From an uncultured Verrucomicrobiae bacterium (GTDB lineage: Bacteria > Verrucomicrobiota > Verrucomicrobiia > Limisphaerales > Palsa-1400): a stretch of DNA of 64,000 nt. Below the pieces are notes generated by a model. It was given only the letters and a program-made list of their open reading frames with translations. It did not search any database and was not told the origin of the DNA. Shown here in pieces: positions 28,924 to 58,671 of the stretch (positions within the stretch are counted from its first letter, which is position 1; each line of letters begins with the position of its first letter). The stretch is taken from assembly GCA_963702845.1 (NCBI GenBank), contig OY969763.1, forward strand, positions 4,192,001 to 4,256,000, in the 5' to 3' direction. Made by a program: the position numbers and the translations under genes.

Positions 28924-30320
28924 GTGTCGCGACCACCGAAACTCGAAAAAATTTCATCCGTTGAAGCGCTGAAGTCCGCCCGCGAAACGCGCGGCCTGCT
29001 TGTTGCCGCAGGTGCATTGGACAAGCACTGCGGAATTTTTTCAAAGCTTATTTCCAGGTCGCACGGCTGCGGTCGATTGCTGACACGAAAACGTTCGATG
29101 TCGCAGGCCGGACCGTGCTTGCAAATCCTGCAAAAGAATGGCGTCAAATGCATTCAGCCGTACATCTTCACCGACCCAAAATTTTACGCCGCTTACAATT
29201 ATGTGGAGGAACTCGAACACGAGTTGAAGTCGCACGATGCGGTGCCGGTGGCCGTTGGCTCCGGCAGCATCAATGACGTGACAAAGCTCGCGTCGCACCA
29301 AAGTCGGCCGACAATACATGGCGGTCGGCACAGCTGCTTCGATGGACGGCTACACCGCTTCCGGCGCGTCGATCACTTACAAAGATTCCAAGCAGACATT
29401 CGGTTGTCCTGCTCCGTTGGCTGTTTTGGCTGACACAGAAATTCTTGCGCCGCGCGCCGCGCGAAATGACGGCCTCGGGTTACGCCGATCTTGTCGGCGA
29501 AACTGACTGCCGGCGCAGATTGGATCGTTGCCGATGCGCTCGGAATCGAAGCAATTGACACAACGGCTTGGCGATTGGCTCAAGCGGGTTTGCGCGATGC
29601 TTTGGGAAGTCCGGATGAAAATTTCGCGCGGCTGACGCTGCATGCGATTGGCGGTGTTGACCGAAGCATTCATGCTCGGTGGTTTCTCGATGCAATGGAG
29701 CAACACCAGCCGCCCGGCGTCTGGCGCGGAACATCAATTCAGCCATTTGTGGGACATGCAACATCACACCCACAAGGCAAAGCACCGTCGCACGGGTTCA
29801 AAGTCGGCGTGGCCACAGTGACAATCACTGCGCTATATGAATATTTGCTGACTCAACCGATCGAGAAATTGGACGTCGAGGGTTGTTGCGCGAAGTGGCC
29901 GAGTCTTGCGGAATTCGAAAAACAAATCCGCACACGTTACGCAGCGGAAAATTTTGTCGAAAAGTGGTGGAGGAATTTCGTGCGAAATATCCGACGCCTG
30001 AAATATCTGCGCGAGCGGTTGAACAAACTGCGTTCGCAGCCTGGCCGCAGATCCGCGAGGAAATCCGCCAGCAATTGATTCCTGCAGCAGCAGTTAAAAT
30101 CGATGCTGCAAAACGGTCGGCGCTCCAGTTGAACCGGAGCAAATCGGAATTACCGCGCACGCGTTTGCGCGACAGCTTCGTGCAGGCGTGGTATATTCGC
30201 CGACGATTTACCGTGCTCGACGTCATTTACCAAACGCAACTCGCTGACCAGTGTCTTGAACATTTGTTCGGCGCGAACGGCGCCCTTGCGCGCATGAACC
30301 CGCAGACCGGAACATACGAT
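28924..30320 (+). CDS. sn-glycerol-1-phosphate dehydrogenase (AraM/EgsA-like), heavily frameshifted; ends approximate
   Basis: AVGSGSINDVTK, TAASMDGY, ADWIVAD, SRPASGAEHQFSHLW, SHGFKVGV, RRRFTVLD fragments in order. Confidence 0.8.
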
Positions 30321-31600
30321 TACTGCACCATCACCTGGGTCAACAACGAATTCCGCTACTGGCAACGCCGCATCCTCATCACTAGCCTGGTCGGTTACGC
30401 GTTTTTTTATCTCGTTCGCAAAAACATCAGCTTCGCGATGCCTGGCATCAAAGCACAACTCGGGCTGACCAAAGCTGATCTCGGACTTTTCCTCACGTTG
30501 CACGGCGTTGTATACGGACTTTCGAAATTTCTTAACGGGTTTGTCGCGGATCGAGTGAATGCCCGATGGTATATGGTCATCGGGCTTGTTCTTTCTGCGG
30601 CGATGAATATTTGTTTCGGGTTCGGCTCGGCCGCGGTGACGCTTGGGCGTTTTTTGGGTGCTCAATGGCTGGTTCCAAGGGATGGGTTTTCCACCGTGTG
30701 CGCGATTAATGACGCACTGGTTTTCGCCAAAACAACTCGCAACAAAAATGTCGATTTGGAACACGTCGCATTCGTTCGGCGCCGGGGCGGTGGCGATTTT
30801 TGCAGGGTATCTCGCGGCTTACGGATGGCGCTATATGTTTTTGGGTGCCCGGTGGACTGGCGATCGTAGCCGCAGATTGTGATGGCGTTCCGACTGCGCG
30901 ACACGCCGCAATTCGGTTGGTTTGCCGGAATTGCCCGACACGCACATCGCGGATGCCGGGCCGGAAGATACAAACCGATTTTAAACGATTCATTTGGCGT
31001 CAGGTCCTGACGAATCCCGGAATTTGGGTTTTTGCGGTCGCGAACTTTTTCGTCTACGTCCTGCGTTATTCGATTCTTGACTGGGGCCCGACTCTGCTGG
31101 CAGAAACGAAAGGCGTGAAACTACAGGAAAGCGGCTGGATGATTGCGGCGTTCGAAGCGTCTGGCGTGGCTGGAATGTTGTTGAGCGGTTGGATCACGGA
31201 CAGGGTTTTCGGCGGACGCGGGGCGCGCACGTGTGTGTTTTGCATGTTCATGGCATCGGTTTCTGCACTGGCATTTTGGTATGCCCCGTCTTCGACGCTC
31301 GTCAACGCGGTCTTGCTGGGATGCGCGGGATTTTTCATTTACGGTCCGCAAGCGCTGGTGGGCATTTGCGCTGCCAATCTCGCGACCAAAAAAGCCGCTG
31401 CAACGGCAGTTGGTTTCACAGGCGTCTTCGGTTACTTGAGCACGACGCTTTCCGGTTGGGGCCTCGGCAAATTGGTCGATTCGTTCGGATGGCACGCCGG
31501 TTTTCTCGCAATCATTGCATTCGGCATCGTCGGCACGGCAATCTTCGCTTTAGGCTGGAACCTGAAACCACACGGTTACGCAAACACGCCAACGCACTAG
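30310..31600 (+). CDS. OPA-family MFS transporter (GlpT/UhpC-like), frameshifted; start approximate
   Basis: GYAFFYLVRKN, YGLSKF, NGWFQGMGFPP...THWF...WNTSH, NFFVYVLRY..LDWGP, IYGPQAL. Confidence 0.85.
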
Positions 31601-31647: not shown

Positions 31648-33290
31648 ATGTTAAGCACGTTGCGCATCAAAAATCTTGCCCTGGTCAGCGACCTCACGCT
31701 GCACCTCCAGCCCGGCTACAACGTCATCACTGGTGAAACCGGCGCGGGGAAGTCGATCATCATCGGTGCGCTCAATCTAGTGCTTGGTCAACGCGCTGAT
31801 CGCGATGCGATTCGTGCCGGGGCGGATCAATGCTCGGTCGAAGCGGTGTTCGAAATCGGAAAGCGCAAAGTCGATCGATACACTGCTGGAGGATAACGGC
31901 GCGGAACCGTGCGCCGATGGCCAACTTATCATCAAACGAACGTTCAGCGCGGCTGGTTCGAATCGCCAGTTCATCAACGGTTCGCCCACCACTTTGCAAA
32001 CCCTCGCGCTGCTCGGTGAGCACTTGGTCGACATGCACGGACCGCACGAGCATCAATCGTTGTTGCGACAACGCAGTCAGTTGGATGCGTTTGGATGGAT
32101 TTGCCGGACTGTTGCCATTGCGCAAGGAATTCGAGTCGGCGGCCCGTTTATGCCGCACGATCGAAGGGGACAAGTCCACCTTGATCGTCGACGAGCAAAC
32201 TTACGCGCAGCAACTGGATCTTCTTCGATTTCAAACGAACGAAATCAGCGCTGCGCGTTTGGAGCCCGGTGAAGGAGCGGAAGTCGAACAGGAGTTTCAA
32301 CGGGCGAGCAATGCCGCGCGCCTTCTTGAACTTACCCAAGCCGCACTCGACGTCCTAAGCGAAGCGGATAACTCGCTGCTCACTCAATCTGCCGAGATCG
32401 GCCGCAATCTTCAGGAACTGCAACGGATTGATTCCGGCGCGACTGAAGTGCTCGGCGCGCATGAACAAGTCACGTCGTCCTTGCGAGAACTCCAGGCGGC
32501 ACTCGGCCATTACTCGGAACGCATTGACGTCGATCCCGCTCGCCTGCGCGAACTGGAAGCACGCGTCGACCTGTTGCACAGCCTGAAACGGAAGTACGGC
32601 CCGAAGCTCGAAGATGTGATTGCATTTGGCGAGTCAGCGAAACAGAAGCTGCAAAATCTGGAACAGCGCGATGTCGAACTGGAGCGCCTGAATTCGCAGT
32701 TGATGAAAGCCAAGAAGGAAGTCTTGCGAATCGGGCGCGAGCTAACGGCTCAACGCAAAAAGGCCATACCGAAATTTGCCAAAGCGGTGACCAAACAGTT
32801 GAACGATCTCGGCTTTGCACAAAGCCAATTTGACGTAGCGCTCACATCGGCCTCCGACGGCGAAGATGCCATTGAATTTCAGTTCGCGCCTAACCCTGGC
32901 GAACCGCCCCGACCGCTTCGCGCGGTTGCCTCATCGGGAGAACTTTCTCGCGTGATGCTGGCGCTCAAAACAGTCCTGGCTTCCGAAGATCAAATCCCGG
33001 TGCTCGTATTTGATGAGATCGACGCGAACGTCGGCGGCGAAACCGCCGGTGTTGTCGGCGAAAAAATGTTACAGATTGCGCACACGCACCAGGTAATCTG
33101 CATCACGCACTTGCCACCGGTTGCTGCCACAGCTTCGACCCATTTTGTTGTCTCCAAACGCCAACACGAAGGTCGCACGATTTCGGAAATTCATCTTCTA
33201 GAACGCGCTCAACGTGTCAATGAAATCGCCCGCATGCTCGGTGGCCAAAGCGAAGCCGCGCGCAAACACGCGCAATCGCTGCTGGGTTAA
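31648..33290 (+). CDS. recN: DNA repair protein RecN, apparent frameshifts at about 31860-32100
   Basis: LRIKNLALV...TGETGAGKS, DMHGPHEHQSL, ASSGELSRVML, VFDEIDANVGG, QVICITHLP, EIARMLGG. Confidence 0.93.
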
Positions 33291-33437
33291 AAACTTATTA
33301 AAATGTTAATAAGTCCGGGCTTTTTTTGCGCAAAAACAAATGTGGTGGTTAAAAAGTGACAGCGCTGCGTGCGCGACTCTAACCATTTTTTAATCCCTCA
33401 GCTGCCTTCGCATTTTCTTCTAGGGGAAATCACGAGT

Positions 33438-33453
33438 TGGCATTGCCGGTGCT
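33438..33453 (+). promoter_or_regulatory. sigma54 (-24/-12) promoter of the first PII-amt operon
   Basis: TGGCATTGCCGGTGCT = GG-N10-GC, about 56 bp before the PII start. Confidence 0.7.
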
Positions 33454-33455
33454 AA

Positions 33456-33848
<393 letters not shown>

Positions 33849-33875
33849 CGCAAACCAAAAACTAAAACTACCAAG

Positions 33876-35720
33876 ATGAAGAAATATCTAGCACTCGCAA
33901 CGATTCTGGCTGGCTTAACCATCGGCGCATTCGCCCAAGCGCCGGCAGACACCAATGCCGCTCCACCCGCTGCCGCGCCAGCTTCAAATAACGACCCCGG
34001 CGGCGGCGCCACGGGAACGATTGGCGACGTCGGTGGCTCCGGCGGATCTTATAGTTATCCTGGGTTTCAAGTCAGTGCTCCTACGCCGCTAAGCGACGAC
34101 GACAAAAAGGACACGAATAAAGTCGCCGCGTTCAACGATGCCACTAAAGCTGCGGCAGATTATACGGCGCAAACCAAAGTTGAACCGCTCGCGGTGAAAC
34201 TGGCTGACGCAGTCGGTCACAACCGCATCTCGATCAACTTCGTCTGGGTGCTGATCACCGGCTTCATGGTCATGTTCATGCAAGCTGGTTTCGCGCTGGT
34301 TGAAACCGGTCTTTGCCGCGCCAAAAATGCCGCGCACGTCATGACGATGAACATGCTGATCTATCCGCTCGGCATGTTGGGTTTTTGGTTGTGCGGCTTT
34401 GCATTCATGTTCGGTGGCGTTGGTACGCCCGGCGCCGGAACGCTCGGTTCCTGCACGAGCTTGAACCATGAAGTCACCTGGACGCTGTTCGGAAAACCTT
34501 TCGGTATCATCGGTTGGAAAGGCTTCTGCCTCTCCGGTGATACCTACGATGTCGGTTTGTTCACCCTGTTCCTCTTCCAGATGGTGTTCATGGATACCAC
34601 TGCAACGATTCCCACTGGAGCAGCTGCAGAACGTTGGAAGTTCTCCTCCTTCTGCCTCTACGGCTGTTTCATCGGCACCGTTATGTATCCCTTATTCGGC
34701 AACTGGGTCTGGGGCGGCGGCTGGTTGTCGCAGCTCGGTGTGAATTTCGGTTTAGGCCACGGCCACGTGGATTTCGCAGGGTCATCAGTTGTTCACTTAC
34801 AAGGAGGTGTCATTGGATTGATCTTCGCGTGGCTGATCGGCCCTCGTCTCGGCAAATACAATAAAGACGGCAGCATCAACCCCATGCCGCCGCACAACAT
34901 TCCTTACGCGATTCTTGGCACGTTCATTCTCGCGTTCGGTTGGTTCGGATTTAATCCTGGTTCAACTCTCGCCGGCACGGACATGCGCATGGCCGTCGTT
35001 GCAGTGAACACGATGCTCGCTTCTGCCTCGGGTTGCATGGCGTCGGTTGTCTGGATGTGGTGGTTCCGCACCAAAAAACCAGATCCGAGCATGGCCTGTA
35101 ACGGCATGCTCGCCGGCCTGGTCGCGATCACTGCGCCTTGCGCATTCGTCACCGCCGGTGGCTCATTAATCATTGGGTTGATTTCCGGTATCCTTGTCGT
35201 CGAATCAGTCTTCTTCTTCGACAAAATCAAAATTGATGATCCGGTTGGCGCGATCTCCGTCCACGGAATCAACGGCGCTTGGGGTTGCCTCGCGCTTGGA
35301 TTGTTCAGTGACGGCACCTACGGGCAGGGCTGGAATGGTGTGCACTGGTTCAAATTGCTCGACGGCACCTACAAAATTCTGGATCCGTCCGCCGCACCGA
35401 AAGGTGCGATCGAACAAGGCATCCTCGGCACCTTCTACGGTGGCGGCATGAGCCAATTCTGGGCCGAATTCGTCGGCGTCCTCACTTGCTTCATCACACT
35501 GTCGATCCTGTCGCTGATTGTTTACGGACTTGTTGCTCTGATAACAAAGGGCCAGCGCGTTTCCCCCGAAATGGAATTGGACGGTTTGGACGTTCCGGAA
35601 ATGGGTGTCGCTGCTTACTCCGGTATCGTGATGGACAAACAATCTGAAACTCCGATGTCGAAAGGCTACGGATCGTCACCTCTACCAGCAAAAGCTCCGA
35701 AGGATTCGGTCAATGCTTGA
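33876..35720 (+). CDS. amt: Ammonium transporter (long form)
   Basis: FMQAGF, AERWKF, DFAGSSVVH, WFGFNPGS, DDPVGAISVHG; both pore His residues present. Confidence 0.95.
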   Translation: MKKYLALATILAGLTIGAFAQAPADTNAAPPAAAPASNNDPGGGATGTIGDVGGSGGSYSYPGFQVSAPTPLSDDDKKDTNKVAAFNDATKAAADYTAQTKVEPLAVKLADAVGHNRISINFVWVLITGFMVMFMQAGFALVETGLCRAKNAAHVMTMNMLIYPLGMLGFWLCGFAFMFGGVGTPGAGTLGSCTSLNHEVTWTLFGKPFGIIGWKGFCLSGDTYDVGLFTLFLFQMVFMDTTATIPTGAAAERWKFSSFCLYGCFIGTVMYPLFGNWVWGGGWLSQLGVNFGLGHGHVDFAGSSVVHLQGGVIGLIFAWLIGPRLGKYNKDGSINPMPPHNIPYAILGTFILAFGWFGFNPGSTLAGTDMRMAVVAVNTMLASASGCMASVVWMWWFRTKKPDPSMACNGMLAGLVAITAPCAFVTAGGSLIIGLISGILVVESVFFFDKIKIDDPVGAISVHGINGAWGCLALGLFSDGTYGQGWNGVHWFKLLDGTYKILDPSAAPKGAIEQGILGTFYGGGMSQFWAEFVGVLTCFITLSILSLIVYGLVALITKGQRVSPEMELDGLDVPEMGVAAYSGIVMDKQSETPMSKGYGSSPLPAKAPKDSVNA

Positions 35721-35794
35721 TTAACCACCCCACCCTCCCGGTTGCGCTAAGTAAAACCAAATGGCGCAACCGGGGTCTGGGGCGGAGGTAAAAT

Positions 35795-36118
35795 ATGAAA
35801 ATGTTTGAAATATTCCAAATGTTCGGCGCAACGATCGTGGGCGGCGCAATCGGTTGGGGATTCGGCCTGCTCCAACAAGCCGCCACCCGCCACAATGAAC
35901 GACTCCAAACCACCGGCAAACTTAACAAGGTCTGGTCGCTGATGCCCGGCTCGATGACGCGCGTCGCGTTTCTCCTGGTCGCGCTCGCACTCGTTCAGGT
36001 CGTTTGCCCGTTATTTTTCACGAGCACTGCGCAATGGGGTGTCTCGGCTGGCGTGATCGCCGGTTACGGCTGGACGCTGTATCAGAGCATGCGCGCGCGC
36101 CTCGCCGCCCGTGTTTAG
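35795..36118 (+). CDS. Small hypothetical membrane protein (about 3 TM)
   Basis: GGAGG before ATG; hydrophobic segments; operon position. Confidence 0.6.
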
Positions 36119-36155
36119 TCCACTCCACTTTTTAACCTCAACAAAAACTACATTA

Positions 36156-36374
36156 ATGAGCACTCCAAAGAGTGTAATTGATAATGCAAAGAAACAGGGC
36201 GCGAAGATGGTCGACGTGAAGTTCGTCGACACCTTCGGCACCGCGTTCTTGTTGAAAGGCGACGTGTTCACTGCCGACTTTTTGGAGATGTGGATCAGCC
36301 ACAAACGCAAAGAGCACGACGCCCTGCGTTTGCGCCCACATCCCTACGAATTCTTCCTCTACTACGATGTGTAG
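36156..36374 (+). CDS. Mini-GlnA: in-frame fusion of the first 29 and last 43 residues of glutamine synthetase (small protein or deletion remnant)
   Basis: 70 of 72 aa identical to the termini of glnA at 42338-43751; all catalytic regions absent. Confidence 0.75.
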
Positions 36375-36396
36375 TTCGTAGTTCAGGCGGAGTGCT

Positions 36397-36431
36397 AAAC
36401 GCCCCGACGCTGTTCGTCGGGGCGTTTCTTT
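36397..36431 (+). terminator. Intrinsic terminator after mini-glnA
   Basis: AAACGCCCCGACG-ctgtt-CGTCGGGGCGTTT then CTTT. Confidence 0.8.
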
Positions 36432-36446
36432 AATTTAATACCCCCA

Positions 36447-37850
36447 ATGAATTACAGCGTTAGCCCCTGGATGATCCTGCCGTTCGGGCTGTTGCTCGGC
36501 ATGATCGCGCTCGCGCCATTGTTCTTCTCGAGCTGGTGGGGCAAACATTACATCAAAATCGCCGTCGGCCTCGCAGCGGTAATGGTCCTCTACTATTTCT
36601 TCGGCTTGGGCGCAAAAATGCGCATCGTCGAAACGGCGCACAATTACATCAGCTTCATCGTTTTTATCGGGGCACTGTTCGTTGTTTCCGGTGGAATTCA
36701 CATCCGGGTGAAAGGCGAAGCAACGCCGATGGCCAACGTGCTCTTCCTTGCCATCGGGGCACTGGTGGCAAACGCCCTCGGAACAACCGGCGCATCCATG
36801 TTGCTGATCCGGCCCTGGATTCGAATGAACCGCCATCGCATCACCGGCTATCATGTCGTGTTCTTCATCTTCATCGTCTCGAATGTCGGCGGCTGCCTGA
36901 CCCCTGTTGGCGATCCGCCGTTGTTCATTGGTTACCTCATGGGCGTGCCCTTCTGGTGGGTGACAAAGCAATGCTGGCCGATGTGGCTGACAGGCGTCGG
37001 CGTTCTCCTTGCGATGTTCTACGCGCTCGACCTGCGCAATTACAAACATGCCAGCAAAGACGTTCGCGATCATCTCACTGCCCACGAAGAATGGCGCTTC
37101 GACGGCTTGCGCAATTTGATTTTCCTCGCGGTCATTTTCGGCGCTGTCTTTATCGAACGCATTCCGTTCCTGCGCGAAGCCTTGATGCTTGGCGCCGCTG
37201 CGGCTTCGTACCATTACACTCACGACACCGTTCACGAATCCAACGAGTTCACCTTTCACCCGGTCAAAGAAGTTGCAGTTCTGTTCCTCGGGATCTTTGC
37301 CACAATGATGCCAGCACTCGATTGGTTGCAGGCAAATGCCCGGCTTTTCGGCACTCCGACACCAACATTGATGTATTTCGGCTCGGGCGCGCTCTCGAGT
37401 GTTTTGGATAATGCGCCCACCTACTGGAGTTTCTTGAGCGCTTCCATCGCAACTTTGGTGAGTCCGGAAACCGTGGCCGGTGTTAAATCGGTCATCGCCT
37501 CCGGCGGCACTCACGCAATGGCAGGTTCGGATGTCGCTCAAACGTTCGCGGTGTTGCAGAAATTTCATCCCGTTGAACTCGCTGCCAAAAACCTCACGAC
37601 CGAACACATCCAAGTCGCGAATCTGCTAGGGAACCCGTCGAGCAAGCTTTACGTCATCGCCGTGACCGTCGGCTCGGTCTTTTTCGGTGCGAACACTTAT
37701 ATCGGCAATGGCCCAAACTTCATGGTCAAAGCCATCGCCGACCAACAGAAAGTGACGACACCGGACTTCCTCAATTACATTTTCAAATACACGCTGCCCT
37801 TCATGGCCCCGATGTTGCTACTGGTCTGGTGGCTATTCTTCAGACAGTGA
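36447..37850 (+). CDS. Putative sodium:proton antiporter (ion-transporter superfamily)
   Basis: GTTGASMLLIRP, SNVGGCLTPVGDPPLFIG, LSSVLDNAPTY, GANTYIGNGPNFMVKAIA; many TM helices. Confidence 0.8.
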   Translation: MNYSVSPWMILPFGLLLGMIALAPLFFSSWWGKHYIKIAVGLAAVMVLYYFFGLGAKMRIVETAHNYISFIVFIGALFVVSGGIHIRVKGEATPMANVLFLAIGALVANALGTTGASMLLIRPWIRMNRHRITGYHVVFFIFIVSNVGGCLTPVGDPPLFIGYLMGVPFWWVTKQCWPMWLTGVGVLLAMFYALDLRNYKHASKDVRDHLTAHEEWRFDGLRNLIFLAVIFGAVFIERIPFLREALMLGAAAASYHYTHDTVHESNEFTFHPVKEVAVLFLGIFATMMPALDWLQANARLFGTPTPTLMYFGSGALSSVLDNAPTYWSFLSASIATLVSPETVAGVKSVIASGGTHAMAGSDVAQTFAVLQKFHPVELAAKNLTTEHIQVANLLGNPSSKLYVIAVTVGSVFFGANTYIGNGPNFMVKAIADQQKVTTPDFLNYIFKYTLPFMAPMLLLVWWLFFRQ

Positions 37851-37867
37851 AGCGGTGGCCGGTTTTC

Positions 37868-39433
37868 ATGCCGTTCGCATCTGAAATCATGAGTCGCAAC
37901 GGCGTGGCAGTTTCAAAAATGAAGCTGTTCACGCACGGGTCGGCAACGTCTCAATACGCTGCTGCGACGGCGGCGGTCGCGGCTGCAACTGCCGGTGGTT
38001 TTATTTTCAATCCACTGATCGGCCCGCATTCGACCGCATTTATTTTCCTCCTGTTCGTGGTTGCGCTCGCGCTGTTTCTTGGACGCGGCCCAACGCTGCT
38101 GGCAGCGACTCTTAGTGCCATTTCCTGGGACTTTTTCTTTCTGCCACCAGTTTTTGCATTTCGCATCACGCACCTGGAAGACGCGATTTTGCTGGCGATG
38201 TATTTCGTCGTGTCGGTCGTGCTCGGGCAACTCACCACACGAATCCGCCGACAGGAAGCGATCGAGCGACGCCGCGAGGAAAGGGTCACGGCATTGTTTC
38301 TGCTAGCTCGAGATCTCACCGAGTCGAAAGACATCAACGAAATGCTCGAGAACGCCGCCAGTCATATCGAAAAGACCTTCGATGCCAAAGCCGCCGTTCT
38401 TCTCCCCGACCGCACCCAAAGGTTGAAACGTTACCCGTATCCCGCGGGCGCATTCACCATCGACGATCGCGATCGCCAGGTCGCCGCGCACGTTTTTGCC
38501 CACGGCAAACCTGCCGGCAGTTTCACCCAAAACATGCCCGTCATTGCGGCGATGTTTGTTCCGCTCGCGACGAGCAATGAAACCCTCGGCGTGATGGGCC
38601 TGAAGTTTTCTGACCCACTCGGTCCGAGCACCAACCAGAAAATTTTACTCGAGGATTTCAATCAGCAGATTGCCACGTCACTCGCTCGTCTGCGCCTGCG
38701 TGAAGTTTCGGAAAAAACAAAACTGCTCACCGAATCAGAGCGTTTGAGCAAGACTCTGTTGAATTCCGTTTCGCACGAAATCCGCACGCCAATAGCGGCC
38801 ATTAAAAGCGCTGTCACCAATCTCGCCGAAATCAAAGACGCTCCTCTGTCAGAGTCCCAGAAACAAATGGTCGGCGAAATCCAGGAAGCCACCGAGCGGC
38901 TCGACCGCGTCGTTGGGAATGTTCTCGAAATCACGCGTCTGGAAGCCGGTCGCGTGCAACCAAAAATCAATTTGTGCGACGTGCGCGACTTGATTCAAGT
39001 CGCGTTGAAAGACGTGAAAAACAAAATGTCGGCGCACAAAATCACCGTCGCAATCACGCCGGATTTGCCACTCGTGCAATTGGATTTCGTTCTCACCCAA
39101 CAAGCGTTGCACAACCTGCTTTCCAATGCCGCATTTCACACGCCGCCGGGCACCGCGGTGAACGTCGGAGCCCGCGTCGATGGCACGTGGCTCTTACTTA
39201 CCATCGCCGACAACGGCCCGGGAATCCCGCCAGAATGTATCGCGCGAATTTTCGATAAATTTTATCGCGGCCCCAGCGCATTGGCTGGCGGAATCGGACT
39301 TGGCCTTTCAGTGACTGAAGGCCTGATTCTGGCGCAAAATGGCAATATTCAGGTCGAAAACCGGCCCGATGGCGGCGCACTTTTTACCATTCGTCTCCCA
39401 ATCAACCGCAGCGCTGCTGCAATCAAATCGTGA
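37868..39433 (+). CDS. KdpD-like sensor histidine kinase (DUF4118 membrane domain, GAF, HisKA, HATPase) lacking the N-terminal KdpD/Usp domains; start uncertain
   Basis: WDFFFLPPVFAFRI, ERLSKTLLNSVSHEIRTP, NLLSNA, DNGPGIP, IFDKFYR, GIGLGL. Confidence 0.88.
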   Translation: MPFASEIMSRNGVAVSKMKLFTHGSATSQYAAATAAVAAATAGGFIFNPLIGPHSTAFIFLLFVVALALFLGRGPTLLAATLSAISWDFFFLPPVFAFRITHLEDAILLAMYFVVSVVLGQLTTRIRRQEAIERRREERVTALFLLARDLTESKDINEMLENAASHIEKTFDAKAAVLLPDRTQRLKRYPYPAGAFTIDDRDRQVAAHVFAHGKPAGSFTQNMPVIAAMFVPLATSNETLGVMGLKFSDPLGPSTNQKILLEDFNQQIATSLARLRLREVSEKTKLLTESERLSKTLLNSVSHEIRTPIAAIKSAVTNLAEIKDAPLSESQKQMVGEIQEATERLDRVVGNVLEITRLEAGRVQPKINLCDVRDLIQVALKDVKNKMSAHKITVAITPDLPLVQLDFVLTQQALHNLLSNAAFHTPPGTAVNVGARVDGTWLLLTIADNGPGIPPECIARIFDKFYRGPSALAGGIGLGLSVTEGLILAQNGNIQVENRPDGGALFTIRLPINRSAAAIKS

Positions 39434-40143
39434 ACATCGAAACGCCCATCAAATCAAAGGTCCTCATCGTCGATGACGAATCGCAAATGCGCCGTTTGTT
39501 GCGCGTGTCGCTCGAGCGAAACGGGTATGAAGTGTCCGAAGCGTCCAACGGCAAACAAGCTCTGGCCGAAGCAGTGCGTACGCAACCGGACCTTGTCGTA
39601 CTCGACCTCGGTTTGCCGGACAGTGATGGCATTGAAGTTTTAAAACGTTTGCGCGAGTGGACGCAGGCACCAATCGTTATCGTCTCCGTTCGCTATCACG
39701 AAGACGAAAAGATCAACGCTCTCGACAATGGCGCCGACGATTACGTCACAAAACCTTTCGGCACACGTGAATTGCTCGCCAGGTTGCGCGTGGCCGAACG
39801 TCACCGGAAAATTTCCACCGCCACGACGTCGTTTCATGCCGGTGCACTTTCCGTCGATTTCGAAACGCGCACAGTCAAACGCGGTGATCAAAAAATCAAA
39901 CTGACCGCCACCGAATATTCAATTCTGCGCCTGTTCATTCAGCACGCCGGGAAAGTTCTGACTCACGGTCAAATCCTGCGCGCGATTTGGGGAACCGAAG
40001 ACATGGAAAAAACTGGTTACCTTCGGGTCTACATGGCTTACCTCCGCGAGAAACTCGAAGAGAATCCTTCCGAGCCAACGCTGCTCGTGACAGAGCCGGG
40101 CGTGGGCTATCGATTGGTCATCGACGACCCAGCTCCTCATTAA
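39430..40143 (+). CDS. kdpE: KdpE-like OmpR-family response regulator
   Basis: LDLGLPDSDGIEVLKRLREW, GADDYVTKPF, GKVLTH..IL..IWG, YLRVYMAYLREKLE, TEPGVGYR. Confidence 0.85.
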   Translation: MNIETPIKSKVLIVDDESQMRRLLRVSLERNGYEVSEASNGKQALAEAVRTQPDLVVLDLGLPDSDGIEVLKRLREWTQAPIVIVSVRYHEDEKINALDNGADDYVTKPFGTRELLARLRVAERHRKISTATTSFHAGALSVDFETRTVKRGDQKIKLTATEYSILRLFIQHAGKVLTHGQILRAIWGTEDMEKTGYLRVYMAYLREKLEENPSEPTLLVTEPGVGYRLVIDDPAPH

Positions 40144-40152
40144 AAAGGTGTT

Positions 40153-40192
40153 AAAAAAACGACAGTTCAAATCGTTCCAATTGTCGTTTTTT
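40153..40192 (+). terminator. Probable bidirectional intrinsic terminator
   Basis: AAAAAACGACAG...TTGTCGTTTTTT. Confidence 0.55.
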
Positions 40193-40240
40193 GCTCACCG
40201 CGGGCTTTCACACATCTTCCCCGAAAAAAATTTCAAATAA

Positions 40241-40289
40241 TTAAAATCTTATTAAAACCGCGCCAGACTTGGTTTTAATACGATTTTAA
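40241..40289. promoter_or_regulatory. Two inverted TTAAAA-N5-TTAAAA direct-repeat boxes (candidate OmpR/KdpE-type sites)
   Basis: TTAAAAtcttaTTAAAA (40241-40257) and TTTTAAtacgaTTTTAA (40273-40289); further copies at 40140-40156 and 33287-33303. Confidence 0.55.
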
Positions 40290-40319
40290 CATCCACCGAA
40301 CCTCACTGGCACGGTCCAC

Positions 40320-40335
40320 TGGTACTCCGGTTGCT
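40320..40335 (+). promoter_or_regulatory. sigma54 (-24/-12) promoter of PII-amtB-glnA
   Basis: TGGTACTCCGGTTGCT = GG-N10-GC, 36 bp before the PII start. Confidence 0.75.
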
Positions 40336-40365
40336 ATCCCTTCTTCAAAGGCTAAAGCTTTGTAA

Positions 40366-40710
<345 letters not shown>

Positions 40711-40743
40711 CCCTCAACCACAGACTTTCTACTAATCAACCAC

Positions 40744-42249
40744 ATGAAAAACCTTGTCCTGAGCCTAACCATTGTTTGCGCGATCCTGATGCACGCCGTG
40801 CCGTCGTTTGCGCAAGCACCTGCTGCTACCAACGCGCCTGCTGCACCTGCGCTGAAAGATCCCTCGCTTGAACAGCGCATCACAGATCTCGAGGCCTATA
40901 TCAACAACGGCGCGCGTGTGAACGCCGCGGTAACAAACATCTCCACGAAAGTCGGCGGGCCTGGCCCCGGCCACAATGCCTGGCAAATGGTTTGCACGGC
41001 GCTCGTATTGTTCATGACCCTGCCCGGCCTCGCCCTGTTCTATGGCGGCTTGGTTCGCAGGAAGAACGTGCTCTCTGTGCTCGCGCAATGCCTCGGCATC
41101 GCGGGATTGGTGACGATCCTTTGGTGGTTGTTCGGCTACAGCATGGCGTTTCATGCCGGTAAGCCTTACATGGGAACCTTCGACTGGGCGTTTCTCAAAG
41201 GCGTCGATTCGAATCCGAACACCGATTACAGCGCGTGGGTCTCGCACAACGTCTTCTCCATGTATCAACTGATGTTCGCGATCATCACACCCGCGCTGAT
41301 CATCGGCGCGATTGCCGAACGCATGAAGTTCTCCGCGATTCTCCTGTTCGTCACCCTCTGGATGGTCCTCATCTACTTCCCGCTCGCGCACATGGTATGG
41401 GGCGTCGACGGATTGATGAACGGCGTTTGGAATGCAGACGCGAAGATTAAAGCCATCGACTTCGCCGGCGGCACCGTCGTCCACATGTCCTCCGGTTGGT
41501 CAGCGTTGATCTTGTGCATGATCCTCGGCAAACGCCTCGGCTTCGGCAAAGAACCGATGCCGCCACACAGCATGGTGCTTTGTATGGTCGGCACGGGAAT
41601 GCTCTGGGTCGGTTGGTATGGATTTAATGCGGGCAGCGCCGTCGCTGCTGACGTCATCGCGGCGAACGCGTTCACCACGACAACGATTGCAACCGCCGTC
41701 GCCTCGTTCGCATGGGCGATGGCCGAATACATCTTGCGGGGCAAGCCGAGTATTCTCGGTTTTTGTTCCGGCGCTGTCGCCGGCCTGGTAGTGATTACGC
41801 CAGCGTGCGGGTTTGTTGATGTCTCCGGCTCGGTAATTATCGGGATCTGCGCCGGTGTCATTCCGTTCTTCTTCGTCACCAAAGTGAAAGGTTGGCTCGG
41901 CTACGATGACGCGCTCGACACCTTCGGTGTTCACGCCGTCGGCGGAACCATGGGCGCGTTACTTACTGGGTTTCTCGCGACTGACAAAGTGAACGGTAAC
42001 TTGAGCTTGATCGCTGACGCGGCCTCAGCCAATCCCGCCACCAAAAACGGCCTCGCCAAACTCGTCGCCAACGGCGGCCTTTGGGTCGAACAACTCAAGG
42101 CCATCGGCGTGACTCTCGCCATGGCAATTATCGGCACCGTCGTTATCGCCTACATCGTCAAAGCCACCATCGGCCTGCGCGTCAGCGATGAAGTTGAAAC
42201 TGTCGGCCTCGACCTCGCCGAACACGGCGAAGAAGGCTATCACGGATAA
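40744..42249 (+). CDS. amtB: Ammonium transporter AmtB
   Basis: LFMTLPGLALFYGGLVRRKN, FAIITPALI, DFAGGTVVH, WYGFNAGS, YDDALDTFGVH, GLDLAEHGEEGY. Confidence 0.96.
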   Translation: MKNLVLSLTIVCAILMHAVPSFAQAPAATNAPAAPALKDPSLEQRITDLEAYINNGARVNAAVTNISTKVGGPGPGHNAWQMVCTALVLFMTLPGLALFYGGLVRRKNVLSVLAQCLGIAGLVTILWWLFGYSMAFHAGKPYMGTFDWAFLKGVDSNPNTDYSAWVSHNVFSMYQLMFAIITPALIIGAIAERMKFSAILLFVTLWMVLIYFPLAHMVWGVDGLMNGVWNADAKIKAIDFAGGTVVHMSSGWSALILCMILGKRLGFGKEPMPPHSMVLCMVGTGMLWVGWYGFNAGSAVAADVIAANAFTTTTIATAVASFAWAMAEYILRGKPSILGFCSGAVAGLVVITPACGFVDVSGSVIIGICAGVIPFFFVTKVKGWLGYDDALDTFGVHAVGGTMGALLTGFLATDKVNGNLSLIADAASANPATKNGLAKLVANGGLWVEQLKAIGVTLAMAIIGTVVIAYIVKATIGLRVSDEVETVGLDLAEHGEEGYHG

Positions 42250-42337
42250 TTCCACCGTAGCCCTAAAGGTAGGGCGCTCGCTTCCGCGCGCGCCCTACCT
42301 CGACGGGCGAAAGCGGAAAACAAAACAGACAAACAAC

Positions 42338-43751
42338 ATGAGCACTCCTAAAAGCGTAATTGATAGTGCGAAGAAACAGGGTGCGAAGATGGTTGACGTG
42401 AAGTTCGTCGATACCTTCGGCACCTGGCAACATTTCACAGTCCCGATGGGCGAACTGACCGAAGAAGTCTTCGAAGAAGGTTTCGGTTTCGATGGTTCCT
42501 CAATCCGCGGATGGAAATCGATCGAAGCCTCCGACATGCTCGCCATGCCTGACCCGGCGACCGCCTTCATCGATCCTTTCTGCGCTGTCCCGACTCTGTC
42601 GCTGACCTGCACCATTGCCGAAACAGGAACGAAGGAAGCTTACAATCGTGACCCTCGTGGCATCGCACAACGTGGTGAAGCCTATCTCAAATCCACCAAG
42701 ATCGCCGACACCGCAGTGTTTGGTCCCGAAGCTGAGTTCTTCATCTTCGACAACGTCCAATATGATTCCAAAGCCAACGGCACCTTCTACTCGGTCGATT
42801 CCGAAGAAGGCGATTTGGAACACCGGCCGCGATGAAATGCCGAACCTCGGCTACAAGATTCGCTACAAGGAAGGTTACTTCCCTGTCGCGCCGACCGACA
42901 CTCAGCAAGACATCCGCACCGAGATGTGTTTGGTCATGGAACAACTCGGGATCAAGGTGGAACGTCAACACCACGAAGTCGCCACTGCTGGTCAGGCTGA
43001 AATCGATTTTCGTTTCGATACGCTGGTCAAGACCGCCGACACGATGATGCTTTACAAATACATCATCAAGAACGTCGCACGGAAACACGGCAAGACCGTC
43101 ACCTTCATGCCCAAGCCGCTCTTCGGTGATAACGGTTCCGGCATGCACACGCATCAATCGTTGTGGTCCAAGGGTAAGCCGTTGTTCGCTGGTAAAGAAT
43201 ATGCCGGCTTGAGCCAGATGGCCCTGTACTACATCGGCGGCATTTTGAAGCACGCGAAAGCCCTGTGCGCGATCTGCAATCCGACGACGAACTCCTACAA
43301 ACGCTTGGTTCCTGGCTACGAAGCTCCGGTTAACCTCGCTTACAGCGCGCGTAATCGTTCCGCTGCGATTCGTATCCCGACCTTCAGCGAAAGCCCGAAA
43401 GCCAAGCGCATTGAGTATCGTCCGCCGGATCCGGCTGCGAACCCTTACCTCGCCTACACCGCCCTGCTCATGGCAGGTCTCGATGGCGTGTTGAACAAGA
43501 TTGAACCGGGCGAACCGCTGGACAAAAACATCTACGAACTGCCTCCGGAAGAACTGAAGAAGGTTCCGAATGTCCCCGGCAGCCTCGGCGAAGCGCTGGA
43601 TTGTTTGGAGAAGGACAATGCATTCCTGCTCAAGGGCGACGTATTCACCGCTGACTTCCTGGAAATGTGGATAACTCACAAGCGCAAGGAACATGATGCG
43701 CTGCGTTTGCGTCCGCATCCTTACGAATTCTTCCTCTACTACGATGTGTAG
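42338..43751 (+). CDS. glnA: Glutamine synthetase type I, one apparent frameshift at about 42810
   Basis: [66 protein letters not shown] (adenylylation Tyr, GSI-beta). Confidence 0.97.
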
Positions 43752-43774
43752 TTCGTAGTTCAGGCGGAGTGCTA

Positions 43775-43811
43775 AACGCCCCGACGCTGTTCGTCGGGGC
43801 GTTATTTTTTT
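43775..43811 (+). terminator. Intrinsic terminator after glnA
   Basis: AACGCCCCGACG-ctgtt-CGTCGGGGCGTT then A and T7; same stem as after mini-glnA. Confidence 0.85.
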
Positions 43812-44133
43812 ATGGATAAACGTGCGTTGTAATCGAGCAATGCGGCGGGTTCGTCACAGCATTGATGATGTATTTCCCCATTCCCGGACATTCCGGCATT
43901 TTGTTTTTCGGCAAATACGGCAGAAGTTGATCAACCGGCGGAACAGCATCGGGCGCTTGCTTATGGTCGTTCGTCCATTTCACTTTCGCGCGTTGAATTT
44001 CATCTAACTGGGCGTGGCAAATCTCTCGGGTCGGATCGTCTGTCGGTGGTGACTCGCCAGTGAACAAAAAAGATATTCCCCAAACCCCAAGCGCCAGCCC
44101 CACGATCAGCAGGTTGCGCGTGAGCTTGTCCAT
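43810..44133 (-). CDS. Small membrane-anchored hypothetical protein with pilin-like Cys C-terminus
   Basis: N-terminal TM; C..QL..IQ.AK..W...CPGMGKY.I......PHCS. Confidence 0.65.
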   Translation of the reverse strand: MDKLTRNLLIVGLALGVWGISFLFTGESPPTDDPTREICHAQLDEIQRAKVKWTNDHKQAPDAVPPVDQLLPYLPKNKMPECPGMGKYIINAVTNPPHCSITTHVYP

Positions 44134-44637
44134 TTACCAACTCCCATCAGCGAGACTGGAAATGGCATTGCGTGCTAAATCTTCAGCCAGGAGCGGCACG
44201 GCCTGGCGTTCGGCGGCGGCAAGGTCGGTCCCGACACGAACAGTGGTGCGGCCATAAAGGGTGCGATTCAAATTGGTTTTGCCGGTGGAACGTTCGACAG
44301 CGGTAATGTCGGCGAACATCGTTAAGGTGTAGTCCTGCGGAGTTAAAACGTCGGTGGGATTAGCGGCCAATTCGCTGCGGTCGAACCTTGTGATTTTTCC
44401 GCTGAGCACAATGTCGCCGGTCCCTTGGGTTTCAAGACGGAAGGTGCCTTCCTGTTGGATGCGCTTGCGCAATGACAAGCTCACGTAATCCGTCAGACGC
44501 GGCTCCAATGTCTCATTGCGAAACGTTTCAACCGACACTGACCTGCTCCCGGCAACATCGCCGTTGGTTGGCCCCAACCTGTATCCAGCGCAACCGCACA
44601 GGGCGGCGACCAGAACGAGTGAGAGCATCGCGCGCAT
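44134..44637 (-). CDS. lptE: LPS assembly lipoprotein LptE-like
   Basis: Lipobox LCGC followed by AGYRLG; FRNETLEP; downstream of bamD. Confidence 0.75.
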   Translation of the reverse strand: MRAMLSLVLVAALCGCAGYRLGPTNGDVAGSRSVSVETFRNETLEPRLTDYVSLSLRKRIQQEGTFRLETQGTGDIVLSGKITRFDRSELAANPTDVLTPQDYTLTMFADITAVERSTGKTNLNRTLYGRTTVRVGTDLAAAERQAVPLLAEDLARNAISSLADGSW

Positions 44638-45654
44638 TTATTTCGGGTTGGTACTCGGCGCTGTCGTCCCTTCGGCGCCACTCGTTTTTTTCTTCAACGC
44701 TTCGATCCGTTGACGTGCCTGGGTGCCCATTGGTGAGTTCGCGTCGATCGCGTAAGCCGCGTTATAATAAATCCGCGCCGCTTCCCACTTATTTCCTTTT
44801 TCGTAATACTGCGCAATGCGGAAATTGCCGCGCGCTTCTTCAGACTTCAACGAGGCAATGCGCCGTTGCGCATCCGGCACACGCGGATCATCGTCGTAAA
44901 GCGCCATAAAATCCGTGAATGTGGCGATCGCTTTTCCGGCAACACTCTGGTCGTAATCCGCCGTGCGCGCTTCCTTCTGATATGCCAATCCGGCCTTGAA
45001 CGTCGCGTCGGCAGCGACCTGCCGTTGATCCGCGTAGCGGTCAGCCGCGCGTTCATACGCTTTCACTGCCAGCGGATATTCTTTCTGCTTTTCACGGGCC
45101 GCGCCGACGTCCATTTGCGCCTGCGGAGCAATCGGGCTATACGGACCGTTCTTCACCACCTTGTCGAACAATCCCGCCGTTTTTTCCCACGACCGATAGA
45201 GCGGAACGTAACCAAACAGCCGATAGAACTGCCCATTGAGATAACGCACTGCGATATCGAATTGCCGTTTTTGCACATCCTGGTAGTCCGTGAACTTCGG
45301 ATATTTTTCCAGCACTTCCTGGTAAGCCTTGAACGCCTTCTCATCCTTGTGCTGCGCTTCATAGCAACGCCCGATCAGATACTGCGCTTGCGGCGCAAAG
45401 TCCGAAAGCTTGCGCATCTTCACCGTTCGTTTGGCCGCTTTCATTGCGAGCCCGTAATCCTTTTTGTCGAACGCCTCCTGCGCGACCTGCAACTGTTCGC
45501 GCGCGCTTTGCCGCTGCCACTTGCCTTTTTCCTCACCGGGCCATTCATAGGTGAAACCTTCCCCCTGCCGATAAATCAAAGGCGCGGGCGAACGAAAAGG
45601 AAACGCGATCAACGCGAGTAATAACAGGACGATACGAAACAAACGGCCACGCAT
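44638..45654 (-). CDS. bamD: Outer membrane protein assembly factor BamD (TPR)
   Basis: TPR repeats, DYDQS...AIATFTDF, RIAQYY...AARIYY. Confidence 0.8.
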   Translation of the reverse strand: MRGRLFRIVLLLLALIAFPFRSPAPLIYRQGEGFTYEWPGEEKGKWQRQSAREQLQVAQEAFDKKDYGLAMKAAKRTVKMRKLSDFAPQAQYLIGRCYEAQHKDEKAFKAYQEVLEKYPKFTDYQDVQKRQFDIAVRYLNGQFYRLFGYVPLYRSWEKTAGLFDKVVKNGPYSPIAPQAQMDVGAAREKQKEYPLAVKAYERAADRYADQRQVAADATFKAGLAYQKEARTADYDQSVAGKAIATFTDFMALYDDDPRVPDAQRRIASLKSEEARGNFRIAQYYEKGNKWEAARIYYNAAYAIDANSPMGTQARQRIEALKKKTSGAEGTTAPSTNPK

Positions 45655-58134: not shown

Positions 58135-58671
58135 ATGCAACGTCCCAAAGTAGCAACGGTTTTCGGAATTCTAAATATCGCCTTCGCGGCGATGGGTGTC
58201 GTTGGACTGATTGTCAGCATCGTTGTCCTACGCGTCGCCGCCGCGAGTCATTCGAACTCAATACTCCAGCAAAGTCCGGTGCTTGCCGCCTGGACAAAAA
58301 TTTCGATGCCGATCGGTTTCGTCAGTTCGATCGTGTTGGCGATCGCCGGAACGGGTTTGCTGCTATTCAAAAACTGGGGGCGGATTCTTTCGATCATTTA
58401 TGCGATCTATGGGCTGGTATTCGGAATCGTTGGCCTCTTTCTGACGTTTTTCTTCATGTGTCTTCCGATGATCCAACAGGCTCAGCAGAATCCCGGCCCG
58501 GAATCGATTGGCAGGACTGCCGGGGCGATTGGCGGGATGATCGGCGGTGTCATCGGTCTGGCATATCCAGTGCTGTTGCTGATTTTCATGCTGCGGCCGA
58601 AAGTGGTTGAGGCATTCCGGGCGGCGGAAGCGGCGTCGTCGCAAAGCCAGAGTTATCCATCGGCGAGCTGA
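58135..58671 (+). CDS. Hypothetical 4-TM membrane protein
   Basis: RPKVATVFGILNI...GLL...WGR...YPVLLLIFMLRPKV. Confidence 0.7.
   Translation: MQRPKVATVFGILNIAFAAMGVVGLIVSIVVLRVAAASHSNSILQQSPVLAAWTKISMPIGFVSSIVLAIAGTGLLLFKNWGRILSIIYAIYGLVFGIVGLFLTFFFMCLPMIQQAQQNPGPESIGRTAGAIGGMIGGVIGLAYPVLLLIFMLRPKVVEAFRAAEAASSQSQSYPSAS

Follow-up and report, generated by a model that had tools for sequence, protein, structure and literature searches.

Genomic context of the mini gene

The window, a stretch of 64,000 nucleotides, contains a small open reading frame made up of the two ends of glnA, the gene for glutamine synthetase (GS), and is referred to here as the mini gene. It is the last member of a unit that also comprises a PII gene (PII1), an ammonium transporter gene (Amt1) and orf107, and the unit ends in an intrinsic terminator hairpin of -28.2 kcal/mol with a folding z-score of -4.35 (Table 1). 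This unit forms part of a 6.9-kb block (33400-40200) consisting of PII1, Amt1, orf107, the mini gene, a permease, a histidine kinase and a response regulator; the last two are of the DUF4118/GAF and OmpR types, respectively, and are located between the permease and a second sigma-54-like motif (40320-40335), which is followed by PII2, Amt2 and the paralogue glnA2.

Table 1. Coordinates of the mini gene, its parts and the neighbouring features in the window.
Feature	Position	Strand	Remarks
GG-N10-GC motif resembling a sigma-54 promoter, ahead of PII gene 1	33438-33453	+	pattern match
PII (GlnB/GlnK-type) gene 1	33510-33848	+	PF00543, E 1.8e-33
Amt1, long ammonium transporter, 614 aa	33876-35720	+	PF00909, E 5e-104; syntenic in 10 relatives
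orf107, conserved 107-aa ORF	35795-36118	+	no Pfam family; present in 10/40 relatives
Mini glnA ORF	36156-36374	+	72 codons plus stop, intact
Mini gene, N part (glnA codons 1-29)	36156-36242	+
Mini gene, C part (last 43 glnA codons plus stop)	36243-36374	+
Intrinsic terminator hairpin, end of the PII1-Amt1-orf107-mini unit	36397-36427	+	13 pairs, 9 G-C, then T-rich tail
perm467, CitMHS_2-type permease, downstream neighbour of the mini gene	36447-37850	+	PF16980, E 3e-130
Second PII gene (40372-40710) and Amt2 (40744-42249)	40372-42249	+	Pfam search
glnA2, full-length glnA	42338-43751	+	two frames in the assembly, one extra G at 42809

The pattern GG-N10-GC, which we take to be the sigma-54 consensus, is matched three times in the window where 0.18 matches are expected (33438-33453, 40320-40335 and 58559-58574), and two of the three sites, all of them putative promoters, stand before PII genes. 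Similar A-rich and sigma-54-like sequences precede both PII genes. On the + strand between 33876 and 36156 only weak terminator candidates are seen, with stems of 5-7 pairs (35155 and 35952) that lie within coding regions; as Amt1, orf107 and the mini gene are not separated by a strong terminator, they are likely co-transcribed. The preliminary description of this DNA had placed the mini gene in the position that glnA occupies in the second operon, which is not quite correct, as orf107 intervenes after Amt1.

Of the other elements in this region, orf107 was found in 10 of 40 relatives and in each of these 10 loci stands directly after the Amt1 homologue, a long Amt1-type transporter; its product is a candidate for an accessory protein to the Amt1-type ammonium transporter. 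Scanning 32000-45000 against Rfam (E<=0.1) gave no hit at the mini gene. A sub-threshold match to the hammerhead HH9 was seen inside recN (32682-32746; 24 bits compared to a gathering score of 52, E 0.027) and is most likely due to chance.

Composition of the mini gene

The mini gene was confirmed to be a 72-aa in-frame join of the N- and C-termini of GlnA, as the preliminary description had stated, both by the open reading frame itself and by tblastn of its two parts: residues 1-29 match the start of the glnA in the window (42338-43751) with 96.6% identity (E 1e-13), and residues 30-72 correspond to its C-terminal 43 residues with 95.5% identity (E 8e-25). Nucleotides 36242 and 36243 flank the deletion junction. 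As all 17 intact glnA genes recovered from the loci of relatives are 470 codons long, this length was taken for the full gene, and the mini gene therefore misses codons 30-427, i.e., 398 codons or 1194 nt. The ATG, the stop codon and the terminator are all present, again in agreement with the earlier account. A random internal deletion is expected to leave an in-frame junction in one case out of three; thus, the kept frame alone is no evidence of anything.

In the full gene the beta-grasp N-terminal domain (PF03951) spans residues 16-94, of which only those up to residue 29 are kept, and the catalytic domain (PF00120) with its active-site loops is missing along with codons 30-427. The 72-aa mini protein hits no Pfam family at E<=0.001, neither PF03951 nor PF00120. 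Judged by its predicted product, the mini gene encodes a protein without catalytic residues, which cannot be a glutamine synthetase.

A codon-by-codon count against the window's full glnA gives 29 of 72 codons that differ, 27 of them synonymously and two with a residue change, and 31 differences in 216 nt; the earlier manual estimate of about 27 synonymous codons and two residue changes (N/S and S/T) is thereby matched exactly. The two residue changes are N10, where glnA2 has S, and S48, where it has T, so that 42 of the last 43 residues are identical to those of glnA2. Both fall at sites that vary among functional GlnA proteins.

Relationship to the other glnA copies

The source genome is a single contig of 6.03 Mb with three glnA loci, the mini gene included, and a distant GS-like gene is also present. 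The third locus, glnA3 (C1:3401646-3403062), is found behind another PII gene. In comparing the three copies, abrupt changes in identity are seen along their length. The segment 36345-36426 (82 nt, of which 30 are coding and 52 non-coding), which covers the terminator stem, has an exact counterpart, with 100% identity, in 43722-43803 at the glnA2 3' end; in the 99 coding nucleotides just upstream of this tract the mini gene and glnA2 differ at 23 positions. Over the last 30 coding nucleotides glnA2 is identical to the mini gene and differs from glnA3 at 8 positions. Between glnA2 and glnA3, there are three differences in nt 1-95 and one in nt 1100-1383, with about 10% divergence in between. 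In total, the mini gene differs from the other two copies at 31 and 38 of 216 nt. These sharp identity switches among the glnA loci indicate gene conversion or a recent common origin of the tracts. The glnA 3' flanks of 17 relatives are too diverged to point to the donor locus of the 82-nt tract.

In an alignment of 21 sequences, just two bases occur in the mini gene and nowhere else, one in AAT (N10, non-synonymous) and one in CCA (P61, synonymous), and these are too few to separate neutrality from constraint. At 18 of its 31 differences the mini gene has the base that is commoner among 18 outgroup sequences, and S48 of the mini protein is the common state of the GlnA family. The synonymous-only pattern mostly goes back to the divergence of full-length, selected paralogues and to gene conversion between them, and it is no proof of selection on the mini gene itself.

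The corresponding position in related genomes

The 10 relatives with orf107 allow the position of the mini gene to be followed beyond the source genome. In eight of them (G009, G010, G014, G015, G017, G018, G020 and G024) the permease follows orf107 within about 150 nt, and the spacer between the two genes carries a hairpin of its own. A short-word blastn search detected no glnA relic in these eight spacers, only chance matches of 8-10 nt. In G035, neither glnA nor the permease was found after orf107 within the 800 nt available.

The only relative with a glnA at the position of the mini gene is G003, and its copy is a long one, extending far beyond the 29 and 43 codons of the mini gene. At 95 nt after orf107, codons 1-306 of glnA run up to the end of contig C122; another contig, C322, opens with the final 141 codons of glnA, after which comes the permease at 75% identity. 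G003 would thus carry a full-length and intact glnA between orf107 and the permease, with about 22 codons left unassembled between the two contigs.

Two genomes of the same genus, G001 and G002, are 73% and 67% complete. In both, recN is directly followed by PII and Amt2, and in G001, where the contig reaches that far, Amt2 is followed by glnA; Amt1 and orf107 were not found in the assembled parts of either genome. Since recN adjoins PII-Amt2 in both, the 6.9-kb block that includes the mini gene is an insertion relative to them.

Distribution of the junction and other GlnA fusions

The joined sequence is confined to the source genome in all sets searched. A contiguous match to residues 1-72 was obtained in 1 of 41 genomes (the source genome itself, with 40 relatives searched), and, at E<=1e-26, a match across the junction in a single genome out of 401 from the order, again the source genome. 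In a set of 5.8 billion proteins, the exact mini protein stands alone in its cluster and occurs on a single contig. By these three measures, the mini ORF has no small-gene conservation across related genomes. The preliminary description had named, as observations that would speak against a functional small gene, a full-length glnA at this place in relatives together with a junction unique to this strain; G003 does carry a long glnA here, and the junction is unique in the sets searched.

Other recombined forms of GlnA were also encountered. The best 120 of 439 protein matches are mostly C-terminal GlnA fragments, and 12 sequences were inspected. Three metagenome proteins, with lengths of 79 aa (P0002), 81 aa (P0041) and 55 aa (P0071), are in-frame N-to-C fusions of GlnA with other junctions; their clusters comprise 1-2 sequences each, and the fusion search favours the detection of in-frame cases. 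In a further three (P0014, P0030 and P0118), the GlnA tail is preceded by an N-terminus of unrelated sequence. When metagenomes were scanned with P0002, 77 loci were obtained, among which P0002's own contig was not found; the sole long match, L082:1866-2126, joins the first 48 aa of GlnA to an unrelated CBS-like tail over residues 1-61. These matches show that apparently broken or rearranged glnA pieces are common in the assemblies of this group and do not constitute a conserved family; some of the chimeras of GlnA heads and tails may be assembly chimeras.

Two further observations concern glnA elsewhere in the group. The glnA of locus L052 (G008:C83) has a 78-nt in-frame deletion in its first 100 nt, corresponding to 26 residues of the N-terminal domain, with a direct repeat of TTGAC on either side. 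In G006, G023, G027, G034 and G035, the final 16-40 glnA codons are found twice, always at the ends of short-read contigs, which suggests that duplicated glnA 3' ends break the assemblies of these genomes too.

Authenticity of the junction

It could be supposed that a real full-length glnA is present at this locus and that the gap of 1.2 kb arose from mis-joined reads of the three glnA copies. The assembly is error-prone, with single-base insertions in glnA2, glnA3, recN and a gene of the MFS type, and no sequencing run contained more than 21% of the words sampled from the stretch. Relative to three relatives with a gene of 1413 nt, the two other glnA copies hold five extra bases, one G in glnA2 (42809) and four G/C in glnA3, so that the glnA that had been described as full is frameshifted in this assembly. 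The recN gene has two single-base insertions (31870 and 32090) compared to both same-genus genomes, and the MFS gene (29883-31600) is split over three ORFs in different frames that match consecutive profile positions. Of the seven indels inspected base by base, each is a +1 insertion. As all five insertions in the glnA copies are single G/C bases in otherwise conserved frames, the frameshifts are judged to be consensus errors of the assembly rather than signs of decay. The loss of 1.2 kb is a different kind of event from these single-base insertions.

The stretch was compared with the Logan contigs of four metagenome runs. In the soil metagenome run X2, a 151-nt unitig is exact over 36145-36295 with 0 differences and bridges the junction with 98 nt on the left and 53 nt on the right, at a depth of 2; X2 may share a sample with the source genome. 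The concern that reads might fail to support the junction is thus not borne out. Exact unitigs of X1, X2 and X3 cover stretches neighbouring the mini gene, indicating the same or a very close strain in those samples. Given the exact unitig across it, the junction is probably no assembly artefact. In addition, the two parts of the mini gene differ from both other glnA copies to the extent given above and so are not collapsed copies, and no repeat boundary coincides with the breakpoints. With these points set against the error-prone consensus, a mis-assembled full-length gene is considered extremely improbable.

Origin and possible function

The mini gene is very probably a young deletion remnant of a redundant third glnA copy and no purpose-built regulator. 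In the sequence of events proposed here, the PII1-Amt1-orf107 unit would once have been closed by a third, redundant glnA, from which one illegitimate internal deletion would have removed codons 30-427, by chance in frame. The start with its 29 codons would have stayed, as would the final 43 codons, the stop and the terminator. Of this remnant, the part most likely still to be useful would be the terminator, as the end of the operon; the mini ORF would probably be co-transcribed and maybe translated into a peptide without use. Both segments would have evolved inside full-length, selected genes, with the three glnA loci swapping tracts; the small number of residue changes relative to full glnA would follow from this history and from gene conversion, and the small number of mini-specific changes fits a deletion that is young relative to the divergence of the paralogues. 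We infer a single deletion event, a recent date, co-transcription and a functionless peptide. No microhomology was found at the junction, as the bases preceding the breakpoints have no more than 1 nt in common with the paralogues and with G003, and no repeat explains the deletion. The redundancy of the lost copy is given by the two other glnA loci of the source genome, an argument that fails if the frameshifts in glnA2 and glnA3 were real. The preliminary description had already put forward as an alternative that a second, previously selected glnA had recently lost an internal segment, and this view gains support from the long copy in G003, the unique junction and the mosaic of tracts.

The preferred reading of a remnant has to be weighed against a functional microprotein, in which the 72-aa peptide, produced alongside PII and Amt when nitrogen is limiting, would place its C-terminal thong into the inter-ring pocket of GlnA hexamers and so tune the assembly or activity of the dodecamer. 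This reading is very unlikely. In passages of PMC6076278, the ring-ring interface of GS I is described as C-terminal helices (the 'helical thong') inserting into the opposite ring, with the last ~21 residues making the interface in H. pylori GS, and the N-terminal domain is described as solvent-exposed. Of the inter-ring contacts ascribed earlier to both termini, those of the C-terminal thong agree with these passages; a contact role of the N-terminal helix finds no support in them, as they present the N-terminal part as solvent-exposed and not as an interface. All 43 C-terminal residues of GlnA are kept, and the mini protein retains the oligomerisation surface whose interface role is taken from these passages of PMC6076278; by this analogy, an action of the C part at the ring interface is physically conceivable. 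The mini ORF is intact with no strong terminator upstream of it within the unit, its start context resembles that of glnA2 in style (an A/C-rich leader), and both of its residue differences from glnA2 fall at positions that are variable in functional GlnA. As a counterpoint to the remnant, the ATG, frame and stop are kept in a unit headed by a sigma-54-like motif, and the peptide could therefore be made with nitrogen-stress genes.

The three differently joined fusions P0002, P0041 and P0071 also bear on this choice, as they could hint at a recurrent and possibly selected outcome. If so, the remnant might have been co-opted, with a peptide from a nitrogen-stress operon of the sigma-54 type capping GlnA hexamers and modulating the formation of dodecamers, and with the three fusions representing independent births of the same trick, which is regarded as very improbable. 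Their junctions differ, however, and with 1-2 sequences per cluster they form no conserved family. The junction of the mini gene itself is absent from the 40 relatives, from the 400 other genomes of the order and, outside its own one-member cluster, from the 5.8-billion-protein set; further, a long glnA occupies its position in G003 and none is found there in eight relatives, and one of the two mini-specific changes is non-synonymous. A single-sequence AlphaFold2 model of the 72 aa is of low confidence (mean pLDDT 60.2, pTM 0.42) and speaks neither for nor against an autonomous fold. With no orthologue of the junction and a low-confidence fold, the earlier suggestion of a microprotein acting on GS assembly finds no support, and the deletion remnant remains the preferred reading.

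Comparison with known systems

As a remnant, the mini gene mainly calls for caution: a neat short ORF whose differences from its paralogue are nearly all synonymous resembles a selected gene, and the same synonymous pattern arises from the recent cut of a long-selected gene with continued exchange between paralogues. The locus also points to an active turnover of glnA copies in a soil Verrucomicrobiota-like lineage (the label being taken from the source names of related proteins), comprising gain at an operon end, internal deletion and gene conversion.

To our knowledge, no bacterial GS-derived microprotein has been described, and none of the papers listed by a literature search deals, judged by title or abstract, with a small protein derived from bacterial GS. 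The small regulators of GS include the cyanobacterial inactivating factors IF7 and IF17, sP26 of Methanosarcina and the tails of GlnR and TnrA. Like these, the mini protein would be a small polypeptide proposed to bind GS directly under nitrogen control; unlike the mini protein, they are not known to be GS fragments and are conserved within their groups, a comparison made by description.

A parallel can be drawn with the microProteins (miPs) of plants and animals, described in PMC4807768 as small proteins that come from larger ones, hold only the interaction domain and sequester their relatives. The mini protein is likewise derived from a multi-subunit enzyme, keeping a segment of subunit contact with no catalytic domain; unlike in miPs, its gene is not conserved, and both the protein and its binding to GlnA are hypothetical. 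If the microprotein reading were true, it would be a first bacterial microprotein carved from its own target enzyme.

The remaining comparison is with gene remnants and pseudogenes. From typical remnants the mini gene differs in that the in-frame deletion keeps the start, the stop and the terminator, giving the appearance of a tidy small gene, and in that it still exchanges sequence with a full-length paralogue, as seen in the 82-nt identical tract. It is like them in being homologous to a functional gene of the same genome while lacking the catalytic parts, in its restriction to one lineage, and in the presence of a long copy at the same place in one relative with nothing there in most others.
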